The notes below the pieces were generated by a model that was not told the origin of the DNA, ran no database searches, and saw nothing but the letters and a program-made list of their open reading frames with translations. The translations under genes were made by a program, and so were the position numbers. Shown one piece after another: positions 3,936-29,027 of a stretch of DNA of 64,000 nucleotides. Origin of the DNA: Paraspadella gotoi (taxonomy: Eukaryota; Animalia; Chaetognatha); the NCBI GenBank assembly GCA_051294375.1, contig JBJCIZ010000824.1, positions 1-64,000 of the forward strand. The letters are read 5' to 3'. Within the stretch, counting starts at the first letter, position 1. The number at the start of each line of letters is the position of its first letter.

Positions 3936-4319
3936 TGTCGGTAGCGTGACCCTTTACCCTCAGATGTTGATAGAGAGCTATTTCATATTCGATCGATCTG
4001 ACTATGTTTGTAATCGGATTTACCTGAATTAGTAGAGAGTTGAGTTTTAAATTATTCTATTTGGATAATACGTCTTAACTTTACGGAGCTAAAATATGAA
4101 GTGATTTACAATTCTTGCCTCTCTCTCTCGTCGCTACTTTGTTTTGTTACATTTAAATCTTTGAACTACAAATATCATTATATGTAATACATTGAGAGAA
4201 AATAAGAGAGAGACCTAACCTTTACAATTTAAACAAATTACGTGAAACTAAAAATATGAAGGAGGGACAAAATTCTTAGTAAAAATAAAATAGGTTACGT
4301 AAACGAAACATTTCTGACA
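3936..4319 (-). repeat. 3' LTR of family A (384 bp)
   Basis: TGTC...GACA termini; same sequence at 10451-10837 and, diverged and inverted, at 45316-45693. Confidence 0.95.
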
Positions 4320-4330
4320 TTCCCCCCTTT
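4320..4330 (-). promoter_or_regulatory. Polypurine tract
   Basis: Minus strand reads AAAGGGGGGAA directly before TGTCAG; also at 10838-10849. Confidence 0.9.
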
Positions 4331-4830
4331 AAAGAAAATTTTGTCTATGACGCAGTTAACAAAATAGTAACAGACAGTAAATATCACAGAAAGCAATGTA
4401 AAATATCACAGTGATTACAAATGATCACGATCAGGCACAGAATAATAATAAAAAAAAACAAAGCAAAGCGAAAAACAGAGAAATATTTAAACGGCGAGGC
4501 ATCAAAGTAAAATTTAGGTTTCGAGTACAAAAATAGACATTAGAAAGTAAAAGAACGAGTAGATGGCCAGTCCACAAGTCCGAAAAAAATGTAAGCAAAA
4601 TTTTAATAGAGCCTCTATCGTGCCAAGTCGTAAAATTTATTCGCAAACAAAAAAAAAAAATACTTCCCACGCAAACATCAAATTCGACTTATATCCAAAC
4701 CAATTCGAACATTCGCTCAAAAACGCAAATCGCTTCGAAAAACCTATCATCGCACCAATCAAAACGCACAGATATCACAAATAAATTCGTCCAATCAGAA
4801 AGCGCCGCGCCTTCTCCACCAAACCCTAAC

Positions 4831-5992
4831 ATGGTAAGTAAAAATATCACAAAATTCACATCTCCTTCGAAAGTGCGCAATTATATACATAAGACTCTTT
4901 CTTATTTCAAATAGTAATCCAAATCTAAACTCAAATCAAAATTCAAAATGATTTCCGTATTTCTCACAATGATTTTTATCGGCCTTTCGAAGGCGAGCGA
5001 CAACGCGTTGAGCCAAGCGGATGGGCTCGCACTGCTGTGCCAGCAGCCTCAATTTTCTGAGGCTACTGAGTGCCGTAGTGCAGTCACTCCGACTGGTCAC
5101 GCAAACCTCCTAACGGCGGCGTCCGAGACAACGTCGGCTCTGAGCCCGCTTCGAGTTCGACGGCGCCCTCGGTCGCACGTGCGTACGCAATGACGGCCCT
5201 GGAGAAGGTGTTAGTGTCTATCGGCGGCTGCATAGGAACCTATTTCATAATCGTTTTCGTTTTGCGTTTCGCGGCAAAGATGAGTTGGATCGATGCCCTC
5301 ACCCTGGCGGCCAGTAGGGGAAGGGGCCAGGTGCCAGGTGTGTGTGGCATGTGTATCACAACCCAGAGGTGCCCGAGACCTTAGAAATGCAGTCGAGAAG
5401 CGTAAGAGATTCAGAAGTTTAAGTGACAGAAAACTTCGACAGAGCCAGAGCGAATTATTTTAAATATTTTGTTTAAATAAGAATTCTATTTCCATAAAAT
5501 TTAAATAAAAATTTATTTCAGTCTGCCGCTCCATTTTACAACTTACTCGCCAAACTCGGATGGACTTACGGACGAAGCTGCTCCATCCCCGTGAACAAGC
5601 AAGGTACCTTCGGACTCTGCACTCCTGATCAAACCACTCTGTATTTGATCGTCATCGCGTCGTTGACGTTCGTGTGCGTCGCACTCATATTGGGAATTGC
5701 AATACTGCAATGCCGTCTATGCATTGGTAAGTAAAATAAAATAAAGCAATAAAAGCAACATAAAGCTACATGCAAACATAAGGAACATGCAATATAAAAT
5801 TTAACATGCAAATCATTTATAAATATCGTGCTGCAATAACAATAAAAATAAATCTATTCAGGAAACAAAAACTCCAAATNNNNNNNNNNCGTTCCGTGCA
5901 CCCTTTTAAACCATCGCTCGAAAGGGAAAACGGCACCGAAACGAAAATCGAAGTCACAAACCATCGAAATCGAAGAAATGCCCGAGGTCTGA
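4831..5992 (+). CDS. Spliced antisense gene: ~112-aa single-pass membrane protein with FAST-fusogen-like architecture
   Basis: Exons 4831-4833 (ATG|gtaagt), 5522-5726 (tttcag|...attg|gtaagt) and 5862-5992 (ttcag|...TGA); phases 0 and 1 join in frame. Translation: MSAAPFYNLLAKLGWTYGRSCSIPVNKQGTFGLCTPDQTTLYLIVIASLTFVCVALILGIAILQCRLCIGNKNSKYRLPVPCTLLNHRSKGKTAPKRKSKSQTIEIEEMPEV (10 Ns filled from copy 2). The function is inference. Confidence 0.72.
4948..5193 (+). CDS. Antisense ORF-A, 81 aa, signal peptide, two Cys, RVRR furin-like site
   Basis: caaaATG context, TATATA at 4882, N-terminal MISVFLTMIFIGLSKA; identical protein at 11468-11713. Confidence 0.6.
   Translation: MISVFLTMIFIGLSKASDNALSQADGLALLCQQPQFSEATECRSAVTPTGHANLLTAASETTSALSPLRVRRRPRSHVRTQ
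5190..5422 (+). CDS. Antisense ORF-B, small TM protein (frameshifted here; 77 aa intact at 11710-11943)
   Basis: VLVSIGGCIGTYFIIVFVL hydrophobic segment; ATGA overlap with the ORF-A stop; AATAAA near 5504. Confidence 0.55.
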
Positions 5993-6281
5993 GGTAAGTT
6001 CATCTATTACTCATGTGCATAAGTAAACAATTCATTTCGTTCGAATCTGCAAACTATTCAATTCGTTCAACAGCATTCGGTCGGATATTCATCACAATTC
6101 GAAAGCAACATGCATGTAAAAACTATTGTATGAAATTCAATCGTATAAATATAAGTATAAAGAATCGGCACAAATTAATATCGTTCAAAAATAAGATAAA
6201 AATAAAANNNNNNNNNNACATTTCGTTTCTTTTGTATTAACTCCATCGAAGGTGAGTTAATGTCGTGAAAAGTCAAATTCT

Positions 6282-6955
6282 CTATCGATTAGACGGTCTC
6301 GGCTGCTGCGGCCACTCCAATCCCTTCCAAGAGACTGTCCGTGTCGTTCCCAAAACCCAAATAGGTTTGTCCTTCAGCTGCTGCTCATCTTCACAAAATA
6401 GTATTCGGTCTAAAACGTCAAAAAGGNNNNNNNNNNCTTGAGCATTTAGGTGAGTTCGATCGTTTTCGTACAAGTTGTTATCTAATATCATTCTACCATA
6501 CCTTTTGGTACGGAAACAATTTTGCAAGGCATGGAAATGCAAAGCACTCATCTTGAACATTCTGCTATCAATCTCCGCTGCAGCATGATTGAACGTCTGT
6601 CGACCTGTTTTAAAGTCACGACTAATTAGAGTCATCGTCACTACTCTCATTGCCGGGAACCGACTGCACGCCTCCCTCACAAATGCAGACAACTGATCCA
6701 GATACACATCGGCATTCAACTTGGGAGCTAACTCGTTTCCACCTCCTATAAACACCATCGTATGATAGTATACATCATTCCTGGCAATTGCTTCGTGAAA
6801 ATGCGGGAACCGTCCACCGCTGATCGCCGTAGTCGTCGTCCAAGGAATGACGCCATGAAGACGCGAGTACGTGGACGTGTTCGCGAGACCCCAAGAATTT
6901 CGTTGTGCAAGGGTTCTGATGTCGACTCGTTACTTTCCGCTGTCCCGCCCACATT
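6282..6955 (-). CDS. SGNH hydrolase ORF, copy 1 (5' part noisy)
   Basis: GGGNEL and DRTHLN blocks; same protein as 12803-13456. Confidence 0.8.
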
Positions 6956-7064: not shown

Positions 7065-8673
7065 TCAATCCTGATTAATTTTAATGATAACATCAATCGC
7101 TTGATTCTTAGTTAAATGAGAACGAATCAATTGGCAAACAGGAAGAAGTATTATAGTGTTATCTATAACATTTCTTACTTTGTACATTCCTGTACCCACT
7201 CTTTCGATTACTTCAAAGGCTGCAATAATTTTCTTTTGCAATTTCTTATTCATATTAGTTGCAAATGCCATTCTCTTTCGAAATACCACATCACCTTTCC
7301 TCAACGTTTCGTTCGATCGCGAGGGTTGAGATGTTGCTGATAAGTTAACAAATTTGTGTATGCAGCAAGTCGGATGTTTTTTGAGTCTCCAATAACAGGT
7401 TGAACTCTCTTCTATTGCAGTGCTTCCTTCAAAGGGATCCATCTCTGGAGTCAATGCTTTCATTGCATGTCGTCGAGTTACCTGGAACGGACTCTTTCCT
7501 CCCAGAGAAATCGAAGGACACATGTTTATCGAAAACTCAACCTTCTTTAAAATTTTCGCCCATTTACGTAAGTCAGGTTCGTTCTCTAACCATTTTAATA
7601 TACGTATTAGACATATTTGGTTTAATCGTTCAGAATAGGCTTGGTGTCGACTAACATATGTACTCTGTTGCACCTTTACACCCAACTTTTTCAAAATTAT
7701 TCGATCTATTTTACGTTGTGTAACACACTTACCGTCAATGGAAACGCAGTCCCATAACCCATGAGATTCAAATATCTTCATAAAAGCCTGGGCTACGTCT
7801 TCGGCAGAAGTCGATTTAATTGCAATTAGAAAAGACTCTCTACTATATGAATCTCTAATGGCAGAGAAAATAAACCTAAACCCTTGAGAATTTACCAGAG
7901 GTCCCAATATATCGCAAGATAAGATCTGTCTGGGACCCATCGGCATCATCGTAGAAGGTTTCTCTTTTATCGTCGGTTTAATATTGTAACTGATACATAT
8001 ATGACATATTCTAATATTATTAATAATAATGCGTCTCATACCTGGTGCATAATATTTATTCGCAATTAGTTTAAAACAGTATTTGCGTTGCAGTGTCCAT
8101 AGTCGTCATGTACCTTTTCAGTTATCTCAGTCAAATATTTGGTATCAATTAAAATAAGTTTATCTATGTCGCCATTTTCTTTAGGGAAAAGTCGAATGAT
8201 AACGCCTTGATCATTAATCCGAAACAAGGATATATGTCGTAATATCGTTAGGTCCAGGGATTCTAATAGTAACGTATCGCTTTTGTTTGGATGCGAGTCT
8301 TTGTCGTCAATCCATTTTCTCCATTTAGATATCTGGGATGAATCGCTTTGTAATTTCAGTATTTTATCTTTATCGTCCTCCTTCAAAGTCGGAAGTTGTA
8401 TATCATCAAAATCTTTATTTGTTTCTAATACAGGTTTATTAGAGAGCAAATCATTAGTACTTGTCACTTTAATATAATCGGTACTCGTATTTGTCCTTTG
8501 TTTCAAAAGATTTATACAATTACAACAACAAGAACAATGTTCGATAGGCATTTCGCTTAGTCCTTTACAATTACATTTGGTACATGGTTCCGATAAAACA
8601 TCTTTCACCTCCGTTTTCCTTACCTTACCTTTTGCTTCATGTCGTTGCCCCGTTGCAGGCTGCTCGATCTGTT
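7065..8673 (-). CDS. pol 3' part (Cys-rich linker and integrase), frameshifted
   Basis: HDDYGH...CHIC zinc finger; SCDIL, SIDG and YSERLN D-D-E core; GDVVF..AAFEVIER GPY/F-like C-terminus. Confidence 0.9.
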
Positions 8674-11348
8674 NNNNNNNNNNNNNNNNNNNNNNNNNGG
8701 TCTCGATTTTTTAGTTTGATTTGTGTCCTTCGAATAAGTCGGGCGGAACAAGGTAAAAAGCGGCATATTTAGATTTAAGAGTGTTATTTTACAGTTCAGT
8801 AATTAGCGGGGCTTCGTCTCTCGTCGAGAAGCCGAGACTGAGAGGCTAGTGGTCCTCTCCCCGGTCAGTGGGATCTCTCTGCTGGTCAGGGTTACGGTCG
8901 ATGTGACTGCTCTTCATCTCTGCACTCAATCTCAGGAAGGAAAGGTTCCACTTGTCTGCTCCCAGCACACGATTCACTCAGCTCACTCTACTCAAAGATT
9001 TCTTCCCAAAAAAAATTTTCTTCATCCTAAGACGTTCATGCTCTCCCAACCCAACACTCCACTTGTCAATCCAATTCCTACTGTTTTTTTTTTAATTTTT
9101 GCGATATTATAGTTGGTGAGTTTTGTTCTAGTAAAGTGTAAAAAAAAATAATTCCTATTTCAATTCTTTTTTAATACTTTTCGAACTTGAAGTTCGGTTA
9201 TGTTAAAGAGAAAAAAAATTTAATTTTCAGGAAACATCAGGCCGATGCCAGCTGACTTGACCCCGGGAGATAGGGCGTGCGCTTGTGGCGCGGCATGGCG
9301 GCGGGACGTCTCTATACGAGGCGTCCTCGCGTTCTGGCCACGTTGGTCGGCGCGCAAGGCGCGGCGGCCGTCCAACATGGTCTTGTTGCTTCGTCTGGTG
9401 AGGCGGAGTTATTTGGAAATATTACGGATAAGGGGTAGGCGCCCTACTTGGCATGGGGGGCCCTGGTAATGGGCTTGAGGAGCGCCTTCCTCAACTCACA
9501 GTCCGATTCGGGCGGTATATCACCGGCTGTCGTTGCTTTGGCTGGAGTCATATGGTTTCAGGTGGTGTTCATTTAATTTGTTATTATTCCGACTATTGTG
9601 TGAATATTAATATGTGTAAATATGGAGTTAATGTAATGTGGAGTATGTAATAAAGTATGTAAATATGGAGTATGTACATGTTTGTAAAATATGGAATTTT
9701 TCTTTTACTTATTTTCCATGCATCAATATGTGTAGTTTAATGCTGTTTATTTTTTGCTCGTTTATGTTTAATTTTGTAAAATATGGATAAATGTGGCTTA
9801 AGCGACAGATCTAACTTAGTGTTACTGGTTGTTTTGTACTAAAACATTAACTTGTAATAGAAAGGAATGAAATGTTTTGAATTCTTTATTCTTTTCAGTC
9901 GCGAAAAAGGAGGGCTAGCGCCGGAACGTCTCATACTGGACCGCGGCGACCGCCCGTTGCTGATGGGAAGTGGCCGCGTGGGCTCGATGTCCCTATCTCC
10001 GGGTTGTGGCGCGCCCGGGAGGTTCATCGTGGTGGAGGAGGACGGCAGGCAGTGGAGCGAGTGGCGGCTCCGGTTTGTCGGAGGCAACTGTGAGGAATCG
10101 CCTTCTAACCTATGGGGAGTTTTCCAAATGGAATGGTTCCATTGCGTCGTGGAGACGGGCTTCGCCCTGGCAGCGTCTCTGTGAGTATATTTAGGGCTGC
10201 AGTGAATGCTATGTCTTTCTAATTGTGTGGTGTAAGAGACGAGAGAGGAAAGAAAGAAGGAATAAAAAAAACTGAAGGAAAGAAAAATTTAAAAAAGTTC
10301 AACACAGGTTCTTTCACTTTTCTTATTTTTTTGTTAAAAAGAGCTAATGTTTTTCTCTTTTGTTTTTTTTTTTTTTTTGTTTCATTTCATAAGATTATTC
10401 TTTTTTTTTTTTCTCTCTCTTTTTTTGTTTTATCATCTTTTTTTTTCAATTGTCGGTAGCGTGACCCTTTACCCTCAGATGTTGATAGAGAGCTTATTTC
10501 ATATTCGATCGATCTGACTATGTTTGTATATCGGATTTACCTGAATTAGTAGAGAGTTGAGTTTTAAATTATTCTATTTGGATAATACGTCTTAACTTTA
10601 CGGAGCTAAAATATGAAGTGATTTAACATTCTTGCCTCTCTTCTCTCGTCGCTACTTTGTTTTGTTACATTTAAATCTTTGAACTACAAATATCATTATA
10701 TGTAATACATTGAGAGAAAATAAGAGAGAGACCTAACCTTTACAATTTAAACAAATTACGTGAAAACTAAAAATATGAAGGAGGGACAAAATTCTTAGTA
10801 AAAAAAAATAGGTTACGTAAACGAAACATTTCTGACATTCCCCCCCTTTAAAGAAAATTTGTCTATGACGCAGTTAACAAAATAGTAACAGACAGTAAAT
10901 ATCACAGAAAGCAATGTAAAATATCACAGTGATTACAAATGATCCACGATCAGGCAAGAATAATAATAAAAAAAAAACAAAGCAAAGCGGAAAAACAGAG
11001 AAATATTTAAACGGCGAGGCATCAAAGTAAAATTTAGGTTTCGAGTACAAAAATAGACATTAGAAAGTAAAAGAACGAGTAGATGGCCAGTCCACAAGTC
11101 CGAAAAAAATGTAAGCAAAATTTTAATAGAGCCTCTATCGTGCCAAGTCGTAAAATTTATTCGCAAACAAAAAAAAATACTTCTCCACGCAAACATCAAA
11201 ATTCGACTTATATCCAAACCAATTCGAACATTCGCTCAAAACGCAAATCGCTTCGAAAAACCTATCATCGCACCAATCAAAACGCACAGATATCACAAAT
11301 AAATTCGTCCAATCAGAAAGCGCCGCGCCTTCTCCACCAAACCCTAAC

Positions 11349-12514
11349 ATGGTAAGTAAAAATATCACAAAATTCACATCTCCTTCGAAAGTGCGCAATT
11401 ATATACATAAAGACTCTTTCTTATTTCAAATAGTAAATCCAAATCTAAACTCAAATCAAAATTCAAAATGATTTCCGTATTTCTCACAATGATTTTTATC
11501 GGCCTTTCGAAGGCGAGCGACAACGCGTTGAGCCAAGCGGATGGGCTCGCACTGCTGTGCCAGCAGCCTCAATTTTCTGAGGCTACTGAGTGCCGTAGTG
11601 CAGTCACTCCGACTGGTCACGCAAACCTCCTAACGGCGGCGTCCGAGACAACGTCGGCTCTGAGCCCGCTTCGAGTTCGACGGCGCCCTCGGTCGCACGT
11701 GCGTACGCAATGACGGCCCTGGAGAAGGTGTTAGTGTCTATCGGCGGCTGCATAGGAACCTATTTCATAATCGTTTTCGTTTTGCGTTTCGCGGCAAAGA
11801 TGAGTTGGATCGATGCCCTCACCCTGGCGGCCAGTAGGGGAAGGGGGCCAGGTGCCAGGTGTGTGTGGCATGTGTATCACAACCCAGAGGTGCCCGAGAC
11901 CTTAGAAATGCAGTCGAGAAGCGTAAGAGATTCAGAAGTTTAAGTGACAGAAAACTTCGACAGAGCCAGAGCGAATATTTTAAATATTTTGTTTAATTAA
12001 GAATTCTATTTCCATAAAATTAAAAATAAAAATTTATTTTCAGTCTGCCGCCTCCATTTTACAACTTACTCGCCAAACTCGGATGGACTTACGGACGAAG
12101 CTGCTCCATCCCCGTGAACAAGCAAGGTACCTTCGGACTCTGCACTCCTGATCAAACCACTCTGTATTTGATCGTCATCGCGTCGTTGACGTTCGTGTGC
12201 GTCGGCACTCATATTGGGAATTGCAATACTGCAATGCCGTCTATGCATTGGTAAGTAAAATAAAATAAAGCAATAAAAGCAACATAAAGCTACATGCAAA
12301 CATAAGGAACATGCAATAATAAAATTTAACATGCAAATCATTTATAAATATCGTGCTGCAATAACAAAAAAATAAATCTATTCAGGAAACAAAAACTCCA
12401 AATACCGTTTGCCCGTTCCGTGCACCCTTTAAACCATCGCTCGAAAGGGAAAACGGCACCGAAACGAAAATCGAAGTCACAAACCATCGAAATCGAAGAA
12501 TGCCCGAGGTCTGA
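11349..12514 (+). CDS. Copy 2 of the spliced antisense TM gene (single-base indels)
   Basis: Same sites: ATG 11349-11351|gtaagt, exon 12044-12250, exon from 12386. An extra C and an extra G in exon 2 break the frame. Confidence 0.55.
11468..11713 (+). CDS. Antisense ORF-A, copy 2
   Basis: Identical 81-aa translation to 4948-5193. Confidence 0.6.
   Translation: MISVFLTMIFIGLSKASDNALSQADGLALLCQQPQFSEATECRSAVTPTGHANLLTAASETTSALSPLRVRRRPRSHVRTQ
11710..11943 (+). CDS. Antisense ORF-B, copy 2 (77 aa, one TM)
   Basis: Open frame MTALEKVLVSIGGCIGTYFIIVFVLRFAAK...RDSEV. Confidence 0.6.
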   Translation: MTALEKVLVSIGGCIGTYFIIVFVLRFAAKMSWIDALTLAASRGRGPGARCVWHVYHNPEVPETLEMQSRSVRDSEV

Positions 12515-12802
12515 GGTAAGTTCATCTATTACTCATGTGCATAAGTAAACAATTCATTTCGTTCGAATCTGCAAACTATTCAATTCGTTCAACAGCATTC
12601 GGTCGGATATTCATCACAATTCGAAAGCAACATGCATGTAAAAACTATTGTATGAAATTCAATCGTATAAATATAAGTAAAAGAATCGGCACAAATTAAT
12701 ATCGTTCAAAAATAAGATAAAAATAAAATCGATTTACTACATTTCGTTTCTTTTGTATTAACTCCATCGAAGGTGAGTTAATGTCGTGAAAAGTCAAATT
12801 CT

Positions 12803-13456
12803 CTATCGATTAGACGGTCTCGGCTGCTGCGGCCACTCCAATCCCTTCCAAGAGACTGTCCGTGTCGTTCCCAAAACCCAAATAGGTTTGTCCTTCAGCT
12901 GCTGCTCATCTTCACAAAATAGTATTCGGTCTAAAACGTCAAAAAGGATCCTCGTCCCTTGAGCATTTAGGTGAGTTCGATCGTTTTCGTACAAGTTGTT
13001 ATCTAATATCATTCTACCATACCTTTTGGTACGGAAACAATTTTGCAAGGCATGGAAATGCAAAGCACTCATCTTGAACATTCTGCTATCAATCTCCGCT
13101 GCAGCATGATTGAACGTCTGTCGACCTGTTTTAAAGTCACGACTAATTAGAGTCATCGTCACTACTCTCATTGCCGGGAACCGACTGCACGCCTCCCTCA
13201 CAAATGCAGACAACTGATCCAGATACACATCGGCATTCAACTTGGGAGCTAACTCGTTTCCACCTCCTATAAACACCATCGTATGATAGTATACATCATT
13301 CCTGGCAATTGCTTCGTGAAAATGCGGGAACCGTCCACCGCTGATCGCCGTAGTCGTCGTCCAAGGAATGACGCCATGAAGACGCGAGACGTGGCTGTCG
13401 CCGAGGACCCAAAATTTGTCGGCAGCGTTCTTATCGACCGTTACTTTCCGCCCCAT
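12803..13456 (-). CDS. SGNH/GDSL hydrolase (217 aa from the ATG), intact, in the env position
   Basis: Block I VLGDSH (S21), block II ISGG, block III GGGN (N67), block V DRTH (D159/H162). Confidence 0.92.
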   Translation of the reverse strand: MGRKVTVDKNAADKFWVLGDSHVSRLHGVIPWTTTTAISGGRFPHFHEAIARNDVYYHTMVFIGGGNELAPKLNADVYLDQLSAFVREACSRFPAMRVVTMTLISRDFKTGRQTFNHAAAEIDSRMFKMSALHFHALQNCFRTKRYGRMILDNNLYENDRTHLNAQGTRILFDVLDRILFCEDEQQLKDKPIWVLGTTRTVSWKGLEWPQQPRPSNR

Positions 13457-15389
13457 CAATTGGTAGTCGCTGTAAAGTAAATAAATAACAATGGTAATTA
13501 GAAATTAACACCTCAATTAATTCCATCTTAATTATTTTGTTTTCACCGATTCGAAATAAGTTATCAATCCTGATTAATTTTAATGATAACATCAATCGCT
13601 TGATTCTTAGTTAAATGAGAACGAATCAATTGGCAAACAGGAAGAAGTATTATAGTGTTATCTATAACATTTTTTACTTTGTACATTCCTGTACCCACTC
13701 TTTCGATTACTTCAAAGGCTGCAATAATTTTCTTTTGCAATTTCTTATTCATATTAGTTGCAAATGCCATTCTCTTTCGAAATACCACATCACCTTTCCT
13801 CAACGCTTCCGTTCGATCGCGAGGGTTGAGATGTTGCTGATAAGTTAACAAATTGTGTATGCAGCAAGTCGGATGTTTTTGTGAGTCTCCAATAACAGGT
13901 TGAACTCTTCTTCTATTGCAGTGCTTCCTTCAAAGGGATCCATCTCTGGAGTCAATGCTTTCATTGCATGTCGTCGAGTTACCTGGAACGGACTCTTTCC
14001 TCCCAGAGAAATCGAAGGACACATGTTTATCGAAAACTCAACCTTCTTTAAAATTTTCGCCCATTTACGTAAGTCAGGTTCGTTCTCTAACCATTTTAAT
14101 ATACGTATTAGACATATTTGGTTTAATCGTTCAGAATAGGCTTGGTGTCGACTAACATATGTACTCTGTTGCACCTTTACACCCAACTTTTTCAAAATTA
14201 TTCGATCTATTTTACGTTGTGTAACACACTTACCGTCAATGGAAACGCAGTCCCATAACCCATGAGATTCAAATATCTTCATAAAAGCCTGGGCTACGTC
14301 TTCGGCAGAAGTCGATTTAATTGCAATTAGAAAAGACTCTCTACTATATGAATCTCTGGCAGAGAAAATAAACCTAAACCCTTGAGAATTTACCAGAGGT
14401 CCCAATATATCGCACAGATAAGATCTGTCTGGGACCCATCGGCATCATCGTAGAAGGTTTCTCTTTATCGTCGGTTTAATATTGTAACTGATACATATAT
14501 GACATATTCTAATATTATTAATAATAATGCGTCTCATACCTGGTGCATAATATTTATTCGCAATTAGTTTAAAAACAGTATTTGCGTTGCAGTGTCCATA
14601 GTCGTCATGTACCTTTTCAGTTATCTCAGTCAAATATTGGTATCAATTAAAATAAGTTTATCTATGTCGCCATTTTCTTAGGGAAAAGTCGAATGATAAC
14701 GCCTTGATCATTAATCCGAAACAAGGATATATGTCGTAATATCGTTAGGTCCAGGGATTCTAATAGTAACGTATCGCTTTTGTTTGGATGCGAGTCTTTG
14801 TCGTCAATCCATTTTCTCCATTTAGATATCTGGATGAATCGCTTTGTAATTTCAGTATTTTATCTTTATCGTCCTCCTTCAAAGTCGGAAGTTGTATATC
14901 ATCAAATCTTTATTTGTTTCTAATACAGGTTTATTAGAGAGCAAATCATTAGTACTTGTCACTTTAATATAATCGGTACTCGTATTTGTCCTTTGTTTCA
15001 AAAATTTATACAATTACAACAACAAGAACAATGTTCGATAGGCATTTCGCTTAGTCCTTTACAATTACATTTGGTACATGGTTCCGATAAAACATCTTTC
15101 ACCTCCGTTTTCCTTACCTTACCTTTTGCTTCATGTCGTTGCCCCGTTGCAGGCTGCTCGATCTGTTTTTCAACTGCGCCGGCCCCTGACGTGCAACGGA
15201 CTCCAATTCCAGCTCCGTTTCCCAAAACCAGTTTAACGGGTAAACATCTGTCTCTTGCGAATTTATTTTGTTTATCTTAGCTAAGGGCCCTCTTTTCCCC
15301 CCTTTGAAAAATAAATTCAATTCATTACGTTTCTCCTCAGAGAAAACATTATCGTTGGGGATCTNNNNNNNNNNNNNNNNNNNNNNNNN

Positions 15390-18300
15390 ATCCCGTGAAC
15401 AAGCAAGGTACCTTCGGACTCTGCACTCCTGATCAAACCACTCTGTATTTGATCGTCATCGCGTCGTTGACGTTCGTGTGCGTCGCACTCATATTGGGAA
15501 TTGCAATACTGCAATGCCGTCTATGCATTGGTAAGTAAAATAAAATAAAGCAATAAAAGCAACATAAAGCTACATGCAAACATAAGGAACATGCAATATA
15601 AAATTTAACATGCAAATCATTTATAATATCGTGCTGCAATAACAAAAAAATAAATCTATTCAGGAAACAAAAACTCCAAATACCGTTTGCCCGTTCCGTG
15701 CACCCTTTAAACCATCGCTCGAAAGGGAAAACGCACCGAAACGAAAATCGAAGTCACAAACCATCGAAATCGAAGAAATGCCCGAGGTCTGAGGTAAGTT
15801 CATCTATTACTCATGTGCATAAGTAAACAATTCATTTCGTTCGAATCTGCAAACTATTCAATTCGTTCAACAGCATTCGGTCGGATATTCATCACAATTC
15901 GAAAGCAACATGCATTAAAAACTATTGTATGAAATTCAATCGTATAAATATAAGTATAAAGAATCGGCACAAATTAATATCGTTCAAAAATAAGATAAAA
16001 ATAAAATCGATTTACTACATTTCGTTTCTTTTGTATTAACTCCACGAAGGTGAGTTAATGTCGTGAAAAGTCAAATTCTCTATCGATTAGACGCGTCTCG
16101 GCTGCTGCGGCCACTCCAATCCCTTCCAAGAGACTGTCCGTGTCGTTCCCAAAACCCAAATAGGTTTGTCCTTCAGCTGCTGCTCATCTTCACAAAATAG
16201 TATTCGGTCTAAAACGTCAAAAAGGATCCTCGTCCCTTGAGCATTTAGGTGAGTTCGATCGTTTTCGTACAAGTTGTTATCTAATATCATTCTACCATAC
16301 CTTTTGGTACGGAAACAATTTTGCAAGGCATGGAAATGCAAAGCACTCATCTTGAACATTCTGCTATCAATCTCCGCTGCAGCATGATTGAACGTCTGTC
16401 GACCTGTTTTAAAGTCACGACTAATTAGAGTCATCGTCACTACTCCTCATTGCAGGGAAACGACTGCACGCCTCCCTCACAAATGCAGACAACTGATCCA
16501 GATACACATCGGCATTCAACTTGGAGCTAACTCGTTTCCACCTCCTATAAACACCATCGTATGATAGTATACATCATTCCTGGCAATTGCTTCGTGAAAA
16601 TGCGGGAACGTCCACCGCTGATCGCCGTAGTCGTCGTCCAAGGAATGACGCCATGAAGACGCGAGACGTGGCTGTCGCCGAGGACCCAAAATTTGTCGGC
16701 AGCGTTCTTATCGACCGTTACTTTCCGCCCCATCAATTGGTATGTCGCTGTAAAGTAAATAAATAACAATGGTAATTAGAAATTAACACCTCAATTAATT
16801 CCATCTTAAATTATTTTGTTTTCACCGATTCGAAATAAGTTATCAATCCTGATTAATTTTAATGATAACATCAATCGCTTGATTCTTAGTTAAATGAGAA
16901 CGAATCAATTGGCAAACAGGAAGAAGTATTATAGTGTTATCTATAACATTTCTTACTTTGTACATTCCTGTACCCACTCTTTCGATTACTTCAAAGGCTG
17001 CAATAATTTTCTTTTGCAATTTCTTATTCATATTAGTTGCAAATGCCATTCTCTTTCGAAATACCACATCACCTTTCCTCAACGCTTCCGTTCGATCGCG
17101 AGTTGAGATGTTGCTGATAAGTTAACAAATTTGTGTATGCAGCAAGTCGGATGTTTTTATGAGTCTCCAATAACAGGTTGAACTCTTCTTCTATTGCAGT
17201 GCTTCCTTCAAAGGGATCCATCTCTGGAGTCAATGCTTTCATTGCATGTCGTCGAGTTACCTGGAACGGACTCTTTCCTCCCAGAGAAATCGAAGGACAC
17301 ATGTTTATCGAAAACTCAACCTTCTTTAAAATTTTCGCCCATTTACGTAAGTCAGGTTCGTTCTCTAACCATTTTAATATACGTATTAACATATTTGGTT
17401 TAATCGTTCAGAATAGGCTTGGTGTCGACTAACATATGTACTCTGTTGCACCTTTACACCCAACTTTTTCAAAATTATTCGATCTATTTTACGTTGTGTA
17501 ACACACTTACCGTCAATGGAAACGCAGTCCCATAACCCAAGATTCAAATATCTTCATAAAAGCCTGGGCTACGTCTTCGGCAGAAGTCGATTTAATTGCA
17601 ATTAGAAAAGACTCTCTACTATATGAATCTCTGGCAGAGAAAATAAACCTAAACCCTTGAGAATTTACCAGAGGTCCCAATATATCGCAAGATAAGATCT
17701 GTCTGGGACCCATCGGCATCATCGTAGAAGGTTTTCTTTTATCGTCGGTTTAATATTGTAACTGATACATATATGACATATTCTAATATTATTAATAATA
17801 ATGCGTCTCATACCTGGTGCATAATATTTATTCGCAATTAGTTTAAAAACAGTATTTGCGTTGCAGTGTCCATAGTCGTCATGTACCTTTTCAGTTATCT
17901 CAGTCAAATATTTGGTATCAATTAAAATAAGTTTATCTATGTCGCCATTTTCTTTAGGGAAAAGTCGAATGATAACGCCTTGATCATTAATCCGAAACAA
18001 GGATATATGTCGTAATATCGTTAGGTCCAGGGATTCTAATAGTAACGTATCGCTTTTGTTTGGATGCGAGTCTTTGTCGTCAATCCATTTTCTCCATTTA
18101 GATATCTGGGATGAATCGCTTTGTAATTTCAGTATTTTATCTTTATCGTCCTCCTTCAAAGTCGGAAGTTGTATATCATCAAAATCTTTATTTGTTTCTA
18201 ATACAGGTTTATTAGAGAGCAAATCATTAGTACTTGTCACTTTAATATAATCGGTACTCGTATTTGTCCTTTGTTTCAAAGATTTATACAATTACAACAA

Positions 18301-19083
18301 CAAGACAATGTTCGATAGGCATTTCGCTTAGTCCTTTACAATTACATTTGGTACATGGTTCCGATAAAACATCTTTCACCTCCGTTTTCCTTACCTTACC
18401 TTTTGCTTCATGTCGTTGCCCCGTTGCAGGCTGCTCGATCTGTTTTTCAACTGCGGCGGCCCCTGACGTGCAACGGACTCCAATTCCAGCTCCGTTTCCC
18501 AAAACCAGTTAACGGGTAAACATCTGTCTCTTGCGAATTTATTTTGTTTATCTTAGCTAAGGGCCCTCTTTTCCCCCCTTTGAAAAATAAATTCAATTCA
18601 TTAGTTTCTCCTCAGAGAAAACATTATCGTTGGGGATCTGTTCCCCAAGTGAGTTTCGTATTATAACATTCTGAAAAACATTCTTAGCTTCAGGCACTTT
18701 TAAGTTATTTTCACTCGATTCTAAATTCCTTGTAATTGATCGCAGCATTAAGAGTCAAGGTATAAAACGCACCGTTATATCATATTCTTGAATATAATTC
18801 AAAGCCCTCGCCACTCTTTCACTCACACTCACTATATCCATACTTAACCAATACGAAACGACTCTAGAGTCAACAAAAACATGGGTTCGGCACCCAAGTA
18901 AATAATGTTTAAAATGCTTAAGAGACTCGGACAATGAAAATAATTCTTTCAGGCAAATAGGAAGCAAAAGATCNNNNNNNNNNAAAGATTTAGAATAATA
19001 TTGAATCAAATATAACCTTTTCTCATCAGGATCGGCACCCTGCAGTACTTCGATATCAGAAGGTCGCTGCAGCTGACACAGCA
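15390..19083 (-). mobile_element. Family A segment 3 (antisense exon 2 to RNase H), between 25-N gaps
   Basis: Same order SGNH-IN-linker-RH; probably redundant gap-fill. Confidence 0.85.
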
Positions 19084-20562
19084 NNNNNNNNNNNNNNNNN
19101 NNNNNNNNATCCCGTGAACAAGCAAGGTACCTTCGGACTCTGCACTCCTGATCAAACCACTCTGTATTTGATCGTCATCGCGTCGTTGACGTTCGTGTGC
19201 GTCGCACTCATATTGGGAATTGCAATACTGCAATGCCGTCTATGCATTGGTAAGTAAAATAAAATAAAGCAATAAAAGCAACATAAAGCTACATGCAAAC
19301 ATAAGGAACATGCAATATAAAATTTAACATGCAAATCATTTATAAATATCGTGCTGCAATAACAATAAAAATAAATCTATTCAGGAAACAAAAACTCCAA
19401 ATACCGTTTGCCCGTTCCGTGCACCCTTTAAACCATCGCTCGAAAGGGAAAACGCACCGAAACGAAAATCGAAGTCACAAACCATCGAAATCGAAGAAAT
19501 GCCCGAGGTCTGAGGTAAGTTCATCTATTACTCATGTGCATAAGTAAACAAATTCATTTCGTTCGAATCTGCAAACTATTCAATTCGTTCAACAGCATTC
19601 GGTCGGATATTCATCACAATTCGAAAGCAACATGCATTAAAAACTATTGTATGAAATTCAATCGTATAAATATAAGATAAAGAATCGGCACAAATTAATA
19701 TCGTTCAAAAATAAGATAAAAATAAAATCGATTTACTACATTTCGTTTCTTTTGTATTAACTCCACGAAGGTGAGTTAATGTCGTGAAAAGTCAAATTCT
19801 CTATCGATTAGACGGTCTCGGCTGCTGCGGCCACTCCAATCCCTTCCAAGAGACTGTCCGTGTCGTTCCCAAAACCCAAATAGGTTTGTCCTTCAGCTGC
19901 TGCTCATCTTCACAAAATAGTATTCGGTCTAAAACGTCAAAAAGGATCCTCGTCCCTTGAGCATTTAGGTGAGTTCGATCGTTTTCGTACAAGTTGTTAT
20001 CTTATATTCATTCTACCATACCTTTTGGTACGGAAACAATTTTGCAAGGCATGGAAATGCAAAGCACTCATCTTGAACATTCTGCTATCAATCTCCGCTG
20101 CAGCATGATTGAACGTCTGTCGACCTGTTTTAAAGTCACGACTAATTAGAGTCATCGTCACTACCCTCATTGCAGGGAAACGACTGCACGCCTCCCTCAC
20201 AAATGCAGACAACTGATCCAGATACACATCGGCATTCAACTTGGAGCTAACTCGTTTCCACCTCCTATAAACACCATCGTATGATAGTATACATCATTCC
20301 TGGCAATTGCTTCGTGAAAATGCGGGAACGTCCACCGCTGATCGCCGTAGTCGTCGTCCAAGGAATGACGCCATGAAGACGCGAGACGTGGCTGTCGCCG
20401 AGGACCCAAAATTTGTCGGCAGCGTTCTTATCGACCGTTACTTTCCGCCCCATCAATTGGTATGTCGCTGTAAAGTAAATAAATAACAATGGTAATTAGA
20501 AATTAACACCTCAATTAATTCCATCTTAAATTATTTTGTTTTCACCGATTCGAAATAAGTTA

Positions 20563-23500
20563 TCAATCCTGATTAATTTTAATGATAACATCAATCGCTT
20601 GATTCTTAGTTAAATGAGAACGAATCAATTGGCAAACAGGAAGAAGTATTATAGTGTTATCTATAACATTTCTTACTTTGTACATTCCTGTACCCACTCT
20701 TTCGATTACTTCAAAGGCTGCAATAATTTTCTTTTGCAATTTCTTATTCATATTAGTTGCAAATGCCATTCTCTTTCGAAATACCACATCACCTTTCCTC
20801 AACGCTTCCGTTCGATCGCGAGGTTGAGATGTTGCTGATAAGTTAACAAATTTGTGTATGCAGCAAGTCGGATGTTTTTATGAGTCTCCAATAACAGGTT
20901 GAACTCTTCTTCTATTGCAGTGCTTCCTTCAAAGGGATCCATCTCTGGAGTCAATGCTTTCATTGCATGTCGTCGAGTTACCTGGAACGGACTCTTTCCT
21001 CCCAGAGAAATCGAAGGACACATGTTTATCGAAAACTCAACCTTCTTTAAAATTTTCGCCCATTTACGTAAGTCAGGTTCGTTCTCTAACCATTTTAATA
21101 TACGTATTAACATATTTGGTTTAATCGTTCAGAATAGGCTTGGTGTCGACTAACATATGTACTCTGTTGCACCTTTACACCCAACTTTTTCAAAATTATT
21201 CGATCTATTTTACGTTGTGTAACACACTTACCGTCAATGGAAACGCAGTCCCATAACCCAAGATTCAAATATCTTCATAAAAGCCTGGGCTACGTCTTCG
21301 GCAGAAGTCGATTTAATTGCAATTAGAAAAGACTCTCTACTATATGAATCTCTGGCAGAGAAAATAAACCTAAACCCTTGAGAATTTACCAGAGGTCCCA
21401 ATATATCGCAAGATAAGATCTGTCTGGGACCCATCGGCATCATCGTAGAAGGTTTTCTTTTATCGTCGGTTTAATATTGTAACTGATACATATATGACAT
21501 ATTCTAATATTATTAATAATAATGCGTCTCATACCTGGTGCATAATATTTATTCGCAATTAGTTTAAAAACAGTATTTGCGTTGCAGTGTCCATAGTCGT
21601 CATGTACCTTTTCAGTTATCTCAGTCAAATATTTGGTATCAATTAAAATAAGTTTATCTATGTCGCCATTTTCTTTAGGGAAAAGTCGAATGATAACGCC
21701 TTGATCATTAATCCGAAACAAGGATATATGTCGTAATATCGTTAGGTCCAGGGATTCTAATAGTAACGTATCGCTTTTGTTTGGATGCGAGTCTTTGTCG
21801 TCAATCCATTTTCTCCATTTAGATATCTGGGATGAATCGCTTTGTAATTTCAGTATTTTATCTTTATCGTCCTCCTTCAAAGTCGGAAGTTGTATATCAT
21901 CAAAATCTTTATTTGTTTCTAATACAGGTTTATTAGAGAGCAAATCATTAGTACTTGTCACTTTAATATAATCGGTACTCGTATTTGTCCTTTGTTTCAA
22001 AGATTTATACAATTACAACAACAAGACAATGTTCGATAGGCATTTCGCTTAGTCCTTTACAATTACATTTGGTACATGGTTCCGATAAAACATCTTTCAC
22101 CTCCGTTTTCCTTACCTTACCTTTTGCTTCATGTCGTTGCCCCGTTGCAGGCTGCTCGATCTGTTTTTTCAACTGCGGCGGCCCCTGACGTGCAACGGAC
22201 TCCAATTCCAGCTCCGTTTCCCAAAACCAGTTAACGGGTAAACATCTGTCTCTTGCGAATTTATTTTGTTTATCTTAGCTAAGGGCCCTCTTTTCCCCCC
22301 TTTGAAAAATAAATTCAATTCATTAGTTTCTCCTCAGAGAAAACATTATCGTTGGGGATCTGTTCCCCAAGTGAGTTTCGTATTATAACATTCTGAAAAA
22401 CATTCTTAGCTTCAGGCTTTTAAGTTATTTTCACTCGATTCTAAATTCCTTGAGTAATTGATCGCAGCATTAAGAGTCGAAGGTATAAAAGCACCGTTAT
22501 ATCATATTCTTGAATATAATTCAAAGCCCTCGCCACTCTCTTCACTCACTATATCCATACTTAACCAATACGAAACGACTCTAGAGTCAACAAAAACATG
22601 GTTCGGCACCCAAGTAAATAATGTTTTAAATGCTTAAGAGACTCGGACAATGAAAATAATTCTTTCAGGCAAATAGGAAGCAAAAGATCGCCGCCCGCAA
22701 AAGATTTAGAATAATATTGAATCAAATATAACCTTTTCTCATCAGGATCGGCACCCTGCAGTACTTCGATATCAGAAGGTCGCTGCAGCTGACACAGCAC
22801 GCTACCCAAAGCAGTGCGGCTTGCATCCGTGAAAGAACGAATTCCTCAATCCTCTTCCTCCACAGCAGATCGTAGAACTCCCGTTCGATCGTCTAACAGA
22901 ATTTTCACACATCGGTGGAATGCTTTCTCCTCTTCCTCGCCCCATTTGAATCGAACGCTACTCTTCGCCATCGCTCTCAGCGGCAGAGCAGCGTCCCTGA
23001 GTAACGCAGTACCTGAAAACCACGCAAGTAGTCCCAAGAAACTCTTCAGTTGCTCTTTCGACGACGGAGGCTTCAACTGTTGCAAAGACGTCGTCTTATG
23101 GGAAGGAAGTCGATGAATACTTTTGAACGAAACACAATAGCCCANNNNNNNNNNNTTCTTAAGTCCAAGCGAAACTTTGGCGGCCTTGAACTTCAGATTG
23201 AAATAACTCATAGTCGCAAAAAACTGATCCATATGCAATAGATGCAAGTCGTGAGTCATGCTGTAGATGATGAAATCATCGACGAAAACGCGGCAAAAAT
23301 CAACCATTTTCGNNNNNNNNNNATCGGAAACCTTCTGCGCATCTTGTGGAGCCGACTTCAAGCCCATGGCGACCACACAGAAACGATAAATCTCGTTGTC
23401 GGCGTAAAAACAGGTGAGGTCGCGACTCGCAGGCGCAAGAGCAATCTGCCAGAAATAATCTGTGGCGTCACAGCAAGAAAACAGCTTCTTGCAACTCGCA

Positions 23501-24900
23501 GCAGCCAGAATATCATCCATCAATTTCATTCTATACGCACGCGTCTCAATCAATTTGTTTACCAAACGATAATCGATAGTCAGACGATTCTTCAATCTTG
23601 TTTCTCCAGTCGCAGGGTTCGTAACATGTCGGCTGACGATATGAGGATTCGAAATGAATTTAGAATCTAACGTTTTCTCAATTATACCGGCTTTCAAAAG
23701 TTTTTGTACATAATCTTTTAATATTTCAAGTTTGGCAGGAGNNNNNNNNNNATATCTATCAATCGTCGGTGGAGGATCATTAATTATGGGAAGTTCAACA
23801 GGGGGAAGATTCACCTTTTCTATCATTTGTCTCCATTTACCTGCCCAAAACACTCCTCTATAATTCCAAACAATATCTTTATATTTTTCAAGATAGTAAT
23901 TAGCCTTTTCAGAGCCTAATTCCCACAATTCTTTCTCTAAATCTTTCCAATCAAACTGAGACAAAAATTCATTTCGGTCAGGCCAATATTCATTCGAACT
24001 ATTTTTCTTCAATTCAGCCTCCCTATTTATCTCAAAATCCGGGAAAACAAGATCCGGCGCAGAAGACTTCGGCGGTGGTGAAAACTTCACTCCATTCTCC
24101 ATCACATCATCCGCTTGATGGGAAGTCAACTTTGAACCCTTGGGTAAGTCATCCACGTCAATCGGAGATGTCGAACTTACGTTTGAATCTATCACCTTGT
24201 GAATTATTGTTACATCTTTTGATTCATCCGTTTCCTCAAAAACCACTTCTCCAATAACCTGCCTAGCTCTCAGAGACCTTTCTGTTTTATTCTTGTTCAT
24301 AANNNNNNNNNNGTAAACCTTTTCTTTTCTCTCATAGGTAACGCCCAAGACATGAACCCCATCCTTCGGCTCTATACCCACTAAAGAATGAAGACAATCA
24401 TCAAAGTTGTGATCGCTAATCTCCACTTCAACCGGAGTGAGGCAAGCTGGTTCGAGTGTTTTCGACGTAAGTGGGAAGAATGTGATGTTTTGTTTCCCAT
24501 CTCGATCATTCGTAACTTCACCTTTGGCTTCCCGTTCCAAACTAATTCATTCGTTCGCCTTTATTTCCAAAACACGAGTCCACGTCTCAATATTACAATC
24601 ATTATTATCCCATCACATCACTTCCCAACAAAGTTGGACTTTCATATCCCATAACATAAGCGAAAACATTCAATTCCATTTTGTTTAATTTTAATGTTAT
24701 CATAACATATTCGGAACAGGATATTTCACCTCCTATGCCAACTAAAATCTTCGGCGTAGTTAATCTTAATATGTTTAATTTTAATCTAAGGCATTATTGT
24801 TTAGAAATCACAGTTCGATCGCTGCCCGTATCGACCTCAAAACAAATAACACGAAAACCGTTTCTATTGTTTATATTTCTATCTCACATTTCAAACACAG
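20563..24900 (-). CDS. pol (PR-RT-RNase H-IN), broken by indels
   Basis: PR EVDTGS; RT RLTIDYRLVN, CCDATDYFWQI, MGLKSAP, FVDD; RH TDAS..LGSVL, KELFS; IN as above. RT-RH-IN order indicates Ty3/Gypsy. Confidence 0.92.
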
Positions 24901-25086
24901 GCAAGATTAACAGATTTCCTTGACGACGTACTTTACTCTTTCGTCATACCTCACCAGAACCCTTTAACCCTATGTACCCGTTCTAGTCAATCGAGTCAGA
25001 TTTCAGTGACAATAGTCCTCAAAATCGTCTGCTATAAATGTCCATCCTTTACGCTTTATTTTCCCTTCCTCCCGCCTCCTTCTCTT

Positions 25087-26108
25087 TTAATTCTCGTTTC
25101 GTTTCTTTTCGCTTTCAAAAGAGAGTAAAATTATTCGAGCCATTCTACAGCCTAAAGAGAAATGTTTCGCTTTCTGCACATCTTTCTTACAAAACAAGCA
25201 TCGTTTCTTAGGACATTTCATGGCCATGTGATCTTCGTCAAAACAATTCCAGCACACATTTCTTCCGATGTTTTTCTTTTCAGCCAATTCGATATACCGC
25301 GATTTCTTTTGAACCATCGCAAAAGATTTCGATTTACATTCCTCATCCTCACTTCCCTCGCTTTCGAAAAGAAAACCATCATCCTGGTCCGCAACGGAAA
25401 AAAAACCTTCGGTCGGTCAGTCCGCATCCAAAACGCGAACGATCATTCACAGAATTTCTAAGGCCACATGCATAACCCACGAGCTCCCTAAACGTATAAC
25501 TAGTATAATTCGAACGTACTAAAGCGGCGCCAATCATTCGATCAGTCAGATAAACTTCAAAGACTGAGAATCAACATCCCGCTCCAGTTTCAGACAGAAA
25601 ATACGAAAACGTCTAGCATATTCCATAATTGTATCGCTACCCTGCTTCAGACGACGAAAACCCTGCTCGAGCTCCGTCTGGGGACTAGGGAAAGTAAGGC
25701 GGAAAACCTCAGCAAAGAAATTTTCCAAATCAAAATCATCAGATTGGGACATCCATTCAAACGTCGCATCAGCATTCGCACGCACATGATTACGACAATG
25801 CAAACTAGCAACCAAGCATCGAACCTGTTCGCTTTCATCACCAAAATATTTCTTAATGTCGCCTTTCAAAATAGATTCATTCGTAATATACTCAATAATA
25901 TCTTTAGAACTGGATAAAGTAGTTTTTATAATTTTATACGAATCGGTCAAAACGCCTCTAATTCCTTTTCCTCTCGTTGCAGATGACGACTCACCAGGGC
26001 GAGGAGCCCTCGAAGGCGCAGACCCCGAAGTCGTCGGCGCCCAACCAGGTGCAGCATCCCCGCAAGATGGCGGCGGCGGCGGAGCGGAACCGACTCGTCC
26101 CCACGCCG
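25087..26108 (-). CDS. gag (capsid-like region and two zinc knuckles), frameshifted
   Basis: LKQGSDTIMEYARRF (major-homology-like); CWNCFDEDHMAMKC (CX2CX4HX4C) and CLFC-X8-H-X4-C. Confidence 0.85.
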
Positions 26109-26514: not shown

Positions 26515-27159
26515 TTCAAGAGCCAGAGTTAAAGAAAAAATACCATTAAATACTTTAGTTTGTTTTAAACCTTAATATTTTAAATTTAAAGTTAAATTAT
26601 AAAATTAACCGATCTTAACGGTTAACCGTTAAAAATTTTAGTTTTAACGGTTAAGCAAATTTCCTAAAAAATTAATGGTTATCGGAACTCTACTTTTGAT
26701 TTCTTTCTTTTTTTCTGGGTGCCTCTGCTGCTGCCGCTGCTGATTCATCCGAAAACGATTTAGATTCTCTCTCTCTTTCTCTTTCTTTTTTTTTCTCAGG
26801 GGCTGCATCTGCTGATCAGTTTATTTTTTTACAATGAAAATTTGTTTTTCTTCTTTTTTTTTCAGAAACTAACTTTAATTTTCCTCAGTACTTTATTATT
26901 TTTTTTTCTCTCTCTCTTTTTTTCTCTCTCTTTCTCTTTTTTCTCTCTTTCTTTTTTTTTCTCAGGGGCTGCGTCTGCTGATCAGTTTATTTGACAATGA
27001 AAAAGTTCTCTCTTGCTGCTTCTGCTAATTCGTCCGAAAATGATTTGGCTTCTCTCTCTCTCTGCGTTTCTATTTAAAAAAAAAAGAATTAGGATTGAAC
27101 TCGTAAAATTAAGCATGGCATTCGTGAATGTTATCATTTTGCTATCGCAACATCGGATT

Positions 27160-27640
27160 TTTTTATTCTTTTTTCTCGTCACTCTCTCTTTTTTTTCTTT
27201 CCTTTTTGTTTTTTTTTCTATTCTTTCTTTCCTTTTTATTCTTTCTTTCCTTTTTATTCTTTTTTCCTTTATATTCTCTCTTTCCTTTCTATTCTCTCTT
27301 TCTATTCTATTCTTTCTTTCCTTTATATTCTTTCTTTCCTTCTATTCTTTCTTTTCTTTCTTTTCTTTTTTACCTTTTTATTCTTTTTTTTTCTATTCTT
27401 TCTTTCCTTTCTATTCTTTCTTTCCTTTCTATTCTTTCTTTCCTTTTTATTCTTTCTTTCTTTTTTATTCTTTCTTTCTTTTCTTTCTTTCCTTTATATT
27501 TTTTCTTACCTTTCTATTCTTTCTTTCCTTTCTATTTTTTCTTACCTTTCTATTCTTTCTTTCCTTTCTATTCTTTTTTATATTTATTCTTTTCTTTTTT
27601 TTTTCTGTTTTTAAATTTTTTTTTCTCAAATTTGATTTTT
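27160..27640. repeat. (TTTC/TTCT)-rich low-complexity array
   Basis: Repeating ttctattctttctttcct-like units. Confidence 0.85.
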
Positions 27641-27714
27641 TTAGTATCAAAATTTGTCATCAATCCAGATTTTTCTCATGCGATTGCAACGATCCTTATG
27701 CTTTTAAGATTTTT

Positions 27715-28400: not shown

Positions 28401-29027
28401 TATTTCATTGTATATAAAAGTAAAAAGCCCAAAAAAACTTTTTCAACTCATTTTATTATTGTGTATCAAATCGTTCAGACAGGACAGGACATTAACCTTT
28501 GTCTTGATATAGGGTCCCCCCCTGTATTGAGGCGTAGTGAATGTTACATACAAAAATTCTAAAAGTCAATTATGAACAACATACAATCAGTAAACATTAA
28601 TTTGAAAAAAAAGGTATGTTTTTTTAATTTTTGCAGTAGGCTATATTTATATATAGTACTGTTTTTATAAAATTGTAAAAAATTCAAAATAGGCTTTTCT
28701 TAATTTTGATTGCAGATTTGAATTCCTCGTCAAAAGTTGATAAAAGAAAATATAAATTATTTCATTAAGTGTGTTTAAAATTAAAAAAACTATTTAATAT
28801 ATAAAAAGTTAATTTTCAGCTTAAAATATAGCTTTTTCTAATTTTTGACCCACTTAATGAAGGAATTTTTCAAAAAGAGTTATATTTCTCTTCATCAACT
28901 TTTTATGACGAATCCAAATCTGCAAAAAAATCTTAGAAAAAACTGTTTTGAAATTTTAACATTTATTGGTTTAGTACTAGTATAAATATGGCCTACTGCG
29001 TAAATTGTAAAATTTATTATAAATTTT

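Follow-up and report, generated by a model that had tools for sequence, protein, structure and literature searches.

A spliced gene antisense to gag-pol, with two putative transmembrane-coding segments, in a Ty3/gypsy element of the chaetognath Paraspadella gotoi

Results

Organization of the element and its copies

The window, that is, the whole stretch of 64,000 nucleotides analyzed here (contig JBJCIZ010000824.1 of assembly GCA_051294375.1, positions 1 to 64,000), carries gag, RVT_1, and integrase matches in that order on the minus strand, as found by a profile search of the window. They are part of a Ty3/gypsy LTR retrotransposon. Indeed, a 3' LTR of 384 bp with TG...CA ends (3936..4319, minus strand) is adjoined by a polypurine tract (4320..4345, minus strand), gag, RT, and integrase are placed as in the gag-RT-RH-integrase order of such elements, and the RT matches the Ty3 RT at an E value of 2e-21, behind an "Enzymatic polyprotein" chain at 8e-29. 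Domain matches place the integrase part of pol at 7065..8673 (minus strand), where it is interrupted by an assembly gap, and RT and gag at 22846-26108 (minus strand), within the fourth copy of the element. Further copies of the 3' LTR lie at 10451-10837 and, inverted and 92% alike, at 45316-45693.

Four copies of the element stand in tandem in the window, 97 to 99% alike and with 25-N gaps between them. Copy 2 (10449..15364, minus strand) has its own left flank, every exon of the antisense gene described below, and extra indels. Copies 3 and 4 (15390..26108, minus strand) each begin inside exon 2 of that gene, behind a 25-N gap, and neither holds exon 1; since three indels are common to both, they probably count as one. 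The gaps, at 8674-8698, 15365-15389, and 19084-19108, flank near-identical tandem copies. Together with the many single-base indels, they resemble an artifact of long-read gap filling, from which we infer that the copy number is unreliable.

An SGNH/GDSL-hydrolase-like ORF in the sense orientation (6282..6929, minus strand) lies downstream of the integrase. It carries a GDSH motif, and its Pfam match is weak (in copy 2, E 0.0034, under the cut-off). The SGNH frame is closed 32 to 34 residues upstream of the GDSH motif in the three copies checked, and this ORF could thus represent a sense ORF3 in its own right, perhaps a spliced one. SGNH-like ORFs after the integrase were also seen at 12803-13504 (minus strand) and 62570-63301 (plus strand), and those of the two sister families are 90% identical. 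The SGNH ORF aside, copies 1 and 2 contain no sense ORF of more than 100 aa between the LTR and the end of the integrase. Since the SGNH ORF is the only one of that size there, we consider the element env-less.

Other repeats occupy much of the remaining window. An inverted sister element (45316-63342, 85 to 92% alike) is split by nested insertions; in the window it comes without the antisense region, and another RT-like sequence follows position 63342. Nested in it are RT and endonuclease-like ORFs (46752-47863, plus strand), which may belong to a Penelope-like element. A BEL/Pao element with Peptidase_A17 (E 3e-42) and DUF5641 matches, indicative of an animal host, is located at 38087-44497 (minus strand). 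An AT-rich block at 27000-35300 consists of tandem repeats with units of 18 bp and 4 bp and comes with an inverted pair (28527-29028 and 34818-35341, 87%).

Exons, introns, and RNA joints of the antisense gene

A spliced gene lies in the interval from pol to the 3' LTR and is read from the opposite strand to gag-pol. Its splice sites on copy 1 are those picked out by the sequence-only reading that preceded this work: a candidate leader exon ending in ATG (4831..4833, plus strand) with a GTAAGT donor directly next to it, acceptors at 5521 and 5861, and a donor at 5727. Exon 2 (5522..5726, plus strand) contains 68 open codons and is separated by intron 2 (5727..5861, plus strand; 135 nt, GT..AG) from exon 3 (5862..5993, plus strand), which in copy 1 has a 10-N run inside. 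To this model we add intron 3 (5994..6073, plus strand; 80 nt, GT..AG), located in the 3' untranslated part, and a last exon with a predicted end (6074..6240, plus strand) and an AATAAA at 6201 as the likely poly(A) signal. The last exon lies tail to tail with the sense SGNH ORF, and the AATAAA would terminate the message just short of the SGNH stop. Between 4320 and 6282, GTRAGT donors number four on the plus strand and two on the minus strand, against 0.64 expected per strand, and the GC content is 46 to 57% in the coding segments and 24 to 33% in the introns.

RNA evidence was drawn from one public run, X1, whose type is guessed as RNA and which consists of contigs only, with all copies of the family pooled. 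X1 contains 43% of the words, and the junction at 63342, which it has in common with the window, indicates the same or a very close species. Two further runs, X2 and X3, gave no matching contigs. Its contigs join 5726 to 5862 (seen in copy-2 coordinates, 12251-12385) and 5993 to 6074, in both cases with GT..AG borders on the plus strand, opposite gag-pol, and contigs start or stop at splice sites (5727, 12385, and 6072). The first of these joints bears out a junction that had been proposed from sequence, with its 135-nt intron. We are therefore highly confident that a spliced antisense RNA exists.

The other proposed junction, from 4833 to 5522 over a 688-nt intron 1 (4834..5521, plus strand), was not recovered: X1 has no such joint, and one contig covers the acceptor without a break (5323 to 5727), which represents an unspliced form and leaves room for a spliced one. 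The X1 cover gap at 4724-4881 takes in the leader exon and makes the run uninformative on exon 1. The case that sequence makes for an ATG leader exon is fair; the donor hexamer at 4834 is identical to both used donors, the acceptor at 5521 is strong, the phase fits, and exon 2 is without an ATG of its own. Two other sites were rejected. A splice site at 4997, where a contig starts, would yield a short frame when joined to the ATG, and the fourth donor-like site, at 6252, is read straight through by an X1 contig. Between the polypurine tract and the leader exon, over 4408-4565, the summed X1 contig depth is high, at 168.

ORF A inside the proposed intron 1

The initial gene model proved incomplete, as the interval that it treated as intron 1 contains a second TM-coding segment. 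The AT-rich ends of this interval (26% and 25% GC) flank 453 nt at 57% GC, and this GC-rich core holds two overlapping frames on the plus strand (4948-5193 and 5079-5384), the second with a TM. Sequence and X1 together suggest one ORF A, or candidate exon A (4948..5401, plus strand), with its own ATG at 4948 and, in order, a Cys pair, a Ser/Thr-rich stretch, and a TM (~5208-5264). In copies 1 and 2 the ORF A frame changes near 5140-5150, with a further length difference near 5320. At both of these places, the first being the change of frame, the length of the X1 contig departs from that of copies 1 and 2, and the break is thus probably an assembly error within one ORF.

X1 also contains contigs of a sister family, 88% alike, over 5150-5340 (copy 2, 11670-11897), which is the TM part of ORF A; the contig depths of this sister family are 95 and 67, versus 8. 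No sister-family contig was found in X1 over exon 2. In comparison with the sister family, ORF A is under purifying selection. Over 45 codons of the TM part compared with the 88% sister contig, there were 11 synonymous changes at 33.0 sites and 5 replacements at 102.0 sites (dN/dS 0.11, Fisher p 8e-5). Third positions account for 11 of the 16 differences among those listed (p 0.004; 23 letters differ), and the other two plus-strand frames have two and one synonymous codons, with stops. Within the family itself, two differences lie upstream of the break, and neither alters an amino acid in the 4948 frame. ORF A is thus very likely coding.

Both ends of ORF A can be read in two ways. With the ATG at 4948, the ORF starts with a signal-peptide-like stretch; alternatively, an intron ends in this same T-rich stretch (42% T) and uses AAG at 4992 as its acceptor, in frame. 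At the other end, a candidate intron of 120 nt (5402..5521, plus strand), with a weak GTAAGA donor and phase 0 in the copy-2 ORF A frame, would join ORF A to exon 2; it is retained in the X1 contig. The form with ORF A alone fits the X1 contigs. The charge around TM A is +1 on either side, which leaves its topology unfixed.

Exon 2 and protein B

Exon 2 is present in four of four window copies. X1 shows no letter differences from it and, where copy 2 has its two exon-2 indels, gives the reading of copy 1. Its translation comprises, in order, a predicted N-terminal helix, a C-X12-C pair, a 23-residue TM (~5639-5707), and a CxxC. The earlier claim of a single TM helix with a basic C-terminal side is upheld: the net charge is 0 before and +4 after TM B, and the peak 19-residue hydropathy of the joined protein is 2.91. 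Dinucleotide shuffling of exon 2, repeated 5000 times, left the frame open in 406 cases, and no shuffle was both open and as hydrophobic as observed, in that frame or in any of the six, with the observed value serving as the threshold.

We refer to the exon-2 product as protein B. It has a predicted start of MSAAPF, no Gly2, and a QCRLC after the TM, of which the CxxC is a candidate acylation site. For a product of the candidate leader splice, the charge of 0 and +4 would predict an N-out/C-in topology. In a single-sequence AlphaFold model (mean pLDDT of 68.9), a helix spans residues 37 to 67, with a pLDDT of 83 to 93 over residues 41 to 68. The predicted helix of residues 3 to 16 has a pLDDT under 60 and a hydrophobic moment of 0.52, and the model is uninformative over residues 21 to 25 of the Cys loop (pLDDT under 50). 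This loop is polar (mean hydropathy of 0.04), and its second Cys lies 6 residues ahead of the TM. Because the X1 contig is continuous over 5323-5727, exon 2 may in X1 be just the 3' untranslated part of an ORF A message. We consider it likely that exon 2 is coding and lean slightly against protein B being made by itself.

Neither segment has relatives in the databases searched. The exon-2 peptide found no homologue among 1.84 billion sequences at E 0.001 and none in the PDB at E 10; Pfam returned no family for any of the five peptides queried, and none of the seven candidates for the ORF A piece is a homologue. Integrase, SGNH, and RT queries retrieved no related loci from viral or metagenome contigs, and the RT search gave 0 of 2305 at E 1e-30, a weak result since it covers proteins of 992 to 2830 aa.

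The exon-3 frame

The three pieces joined by the sequence-only reading give 112 codons with zero internal stops in copy 1, with Cys at positions 21, 34, 53, 65, 68, and 82 and four residues left undefined by the 10-N run in exon 3. This join stands for copy 1 and for no other source. The exon-3 frame extends over 42 codons there and stops after 14 codons in copies 2 to 4. In X1, the length near 5901 is likewise the shorter one, so that each of these four sources gives 84 aa. The caveat that copies 2 to 4 end early, raised along with the original claim, is confirmed in all three. The polybasic RSKGKTAPKRKSK tail is accordingly limited to one of the five sources. In the majority form, the 84 aa end in a 21-residue tail with 4 basic residues. 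The window copies are rich in single-base indels, and the long frame of copy 1 is likely a sequencing error. A 112-aa FAST-like protein is probably not real, and we give that form very little credence.

Discussion

The region that separates pol from the 3' LTR is best modeled as an antisense cassette of several exons, from which either single-pass proteins (one or two) or a fusion with two TMs would arise. As a tentative reading of its role, we propose a spliced antisense accessory gene with two TM-coding segments, the membrane products of which would help capsids into neighboring cells. Antisense introns survive the reverse transcription of sense RNA; here, they would be kept since it is RNA of the opposite strand that is packaged. 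The ATG-only leader exon would be spliced to exon A, or past exon A to exon 2, yielding an ORF A protein of ~145 to 160 aa and protein B of 84 aa, each presumably N-out/C-in. These small products would sit in the cell membrane and might aid the passage of capsids to neighbor cells, standing in for an envelope.

The role in cell-to-cell transfer is the least certain step of this proposal, drawn by analogy with the sORF2 proteins of insect elements and from the missing env, and we regard it as doubtful. We favor it because of the absence of env, the two TM segments (one of them under selection), the N-out/C-in charge of protein B, and the precedent of sORF2, which in env-less MDG1 elements is described at the membrane with capsids in the available text of Voichek 2025 (10.1101/2025.03.14.642691). 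In a more specific version, an independently transcribed cassette has replaced env, and its leader exon can be joined to one or the other of two small, unrelated membrane proteins, or to both as a two-TM fusion; the cassette would then be a splice-switchable device for transfer between cells that is missed by screens for FAST/sORF2 genes based on ORFs. We consider this version rather unlikely. That the gene encodes a true FAST-type fusogen appears quite unlikely.

The products could instead be intracellular or host-modulating accessory membrane proteins, and not agents of spread; they might anchor particle assembly, take part in RNA-protein traffic with the SGNH esterase, or counter host defence. 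The evidence that ORF A and exon 2 are coding applies equally to such a role, and the short tail and polar loop of protein B are in line with it, as is HIV-1 ASP, an antisense membrane protein. Moreover, SGNH esterases of retroelements have been tied to membrane-dependent localization (PMC5408684, in the text available). A separate antisense message does mean expression apart from gag-pol, but this is compatible with an accessory role as well as with transfer. We judge the purely accessory role somewhat unlikely.

Another explanation is a five-exon gene with introns of 159, 120, 135, and 80 nt. Exon A and exon 2 would then encode a two-TM protein of ~220 aa acting as a pore, a membrane anchor, or an env-like hairpin, with protein B as the exon-skipped form. 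Phase 0 is common to the acceptor AAG (4992) and the donor GTAAGA (5402), the intron sizes are consistent with those of the two confirmed introns, and ORF3 of the rotifer element Vesta4, as far as the available text of PMC5408684 describes it, has 220 to 230 aa and two TMs with cysteines between them. However, the sites at 4992 and 5402 are weaker than the confirmed ones, 5402-5521 is kept in an X1 contig, and, were the loop behind TM A cytoplasmic, a hairpin would clash with the +4 charge after TM B, which fits N-out/C-in. Such a gene is unlikely.

Alternatively, the antisense RNA may be mainly regulatory, through silencing or interference with pol, with ORF A alone or nothing translated and exon 2 a relic. 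The X1 contig, in which exon 2 has no in-frame start, is compatible with this, and micropia produces antisense non-coding RNAs (PMC7264820, in the text available). However, the predicted end of the message at ~6240 is short of the sense ORF and therefore gives zero overlap with coding sequence, X1 has an intact exon-2 frame of strongly TM-like character, and the dN/dS of ORF A is 0.11, making the regulatory reading improbable. Least probable of all is the 112-aa p10-like FAST fusogen with a polybasic tail: copy 1 is open over 112 codons, with its stop one base ahead of the intron-3 donor, and the order of a 40-residue ectodomain, Cys pair, and juxtamembrane Cys is as in p10, but four of the five sources end at 84 aa, the window copies are full of single-base indels, the loop is polar, the conserved motif of p10 is absent, and X1 shows no joint for intron 1.

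Comparison with known systems

FAST proteins have ~100 to 200 residues, with an endodomain of ~40 to 140, which carries a polybasic cluster and an amphipathic helix, and an amphiphilic ectodomain of under ~40 residues (PMC7412057, available text), and they are heterogeneous (PMC12945298, available text). Protein B is smaller, with 84 aa in four of five sources; its ectodomain has 40 residues, with a weakly predicted N-terminal helix, and its endodomain has just 21 residues, 4 of them basic, a dense cluster occurring in copy 1 only. The 84-aa form is also without a myristoylation site. The reoviral p10 FAST proteins (avian and Nelson Bay) share with protein B an N-terminal part of ~40 residues, two Cys, one TM, and two Cys after it (PMC3961370 and PMC7412057, available text). 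However, p10 has a hydrophobic loop and a 13-residue membrane-proximal region with an invariant motif, whereas protein B has a polar loop and 6 residues without the motif (PMC3961370, available text). Adjacent di-Cys residues and an endodomain of ~40 residues with a polybasic motif and an amphipathic helix, as the available descriptions of p10 give them, are replaced in protein B by a CxxC and a 21-residue tail. No sequence similarity between protein B and p10 was found. The p10-like layout initially proposed for this gene is thus not supported, given a tail found in one of five sources, a 21-residue endodomain, and a polar loop.

The Drosophila genes that the sequence-only reading cited as FAST-like do exist, as sORF2 of insect Metaviridae, but they are not antisense: all 105 insect candidates are sense-oriented and unspliced, whereas the present gene is antisense and spliced (Voichek 2025, 10.1101/2025.03.14.642691, available text). 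The likeness lies in an env-less gypsy element with a small single-TM protein (63 to 107 aa, versus 84 aa here), predicted to be N-out/C-in and with basic residues past the TM. According to the same source, the sORF2 candidates were selected for an MGxxxS/T motif, their ectodomain measures ~30 residues, and past the TM they have a conserved Tyr, none of which applies to protein B; MGxxxS/T is missing from two of the six D. melanogaster sORF2 proteins too. Since the sORF2 screen, as described in the available text, was limited to unspliced ORFs and required myristoylation, it could not find the present gene. Although protein B departs from FAST, p10, and sORF2 proteins in these respects, it may, by analogy, work like FAST or sORF2 proteins. 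Small membrane proteins are known to allow env-less retrotransposons to pass from soma to germline. If our reading is true, a membrane gene that is antisense and spliced would provide a further such route, hidden from screens for unspliced or myristoylated ORFs, and the element could express a membrane protein separately from gag-pol. Searches of open-access article text turned up no animal LTR element with a TM gene that is both antisense and spliced.

Antisense genes at the 3' end of retroelements include HTLV-1 HBZ, which is spliced, and HIV-1 ASP, the product of which is a membrane protein. Both overlap env or pX in complex retroviruses. Unlike them, the present gene occupies its own space and has AT-rich introns. 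Among bdelloid rotifer LTR elements, SGNH/GDSL ORFs follow pol, and small TM ORF3s have been proposed as env substitutes (PMC5408684, available text). An antisense ORF3 was not found in that text; in the present element, an SGNH ORF meets an antisense TM cassette tail to tail.

By position, the gene belongs with the antisense additional ORFs of plants and Botrytis. The aORF-3R of maize Grande (gene23), rice RIRE2, and Silene Retand have the same position and orientation and a separate antisense transcript (PMC7264820, available text), and brtn of Botrytis Boty is likewise an antisense ORF between pol and the 3' LTR in the text available. The gene described here is antisense, lies between pol and the 3' LTR, and is transcribed in antisense in X1, a run of guessed RNA type. 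It also shares with the aORF-3R that they have no database homologue and no assigned function (PMC7264820, available text). The aORF-3R known from that text are of plants or fungi, and those localized are nuclear; in contrast, the present gene is in an animal, with at least two splices, and both of its coding segments bear a TM. Even without a transfer role, it would extend antisense accessory ORFs from plants and fungi to membrane proteins in an animal element.
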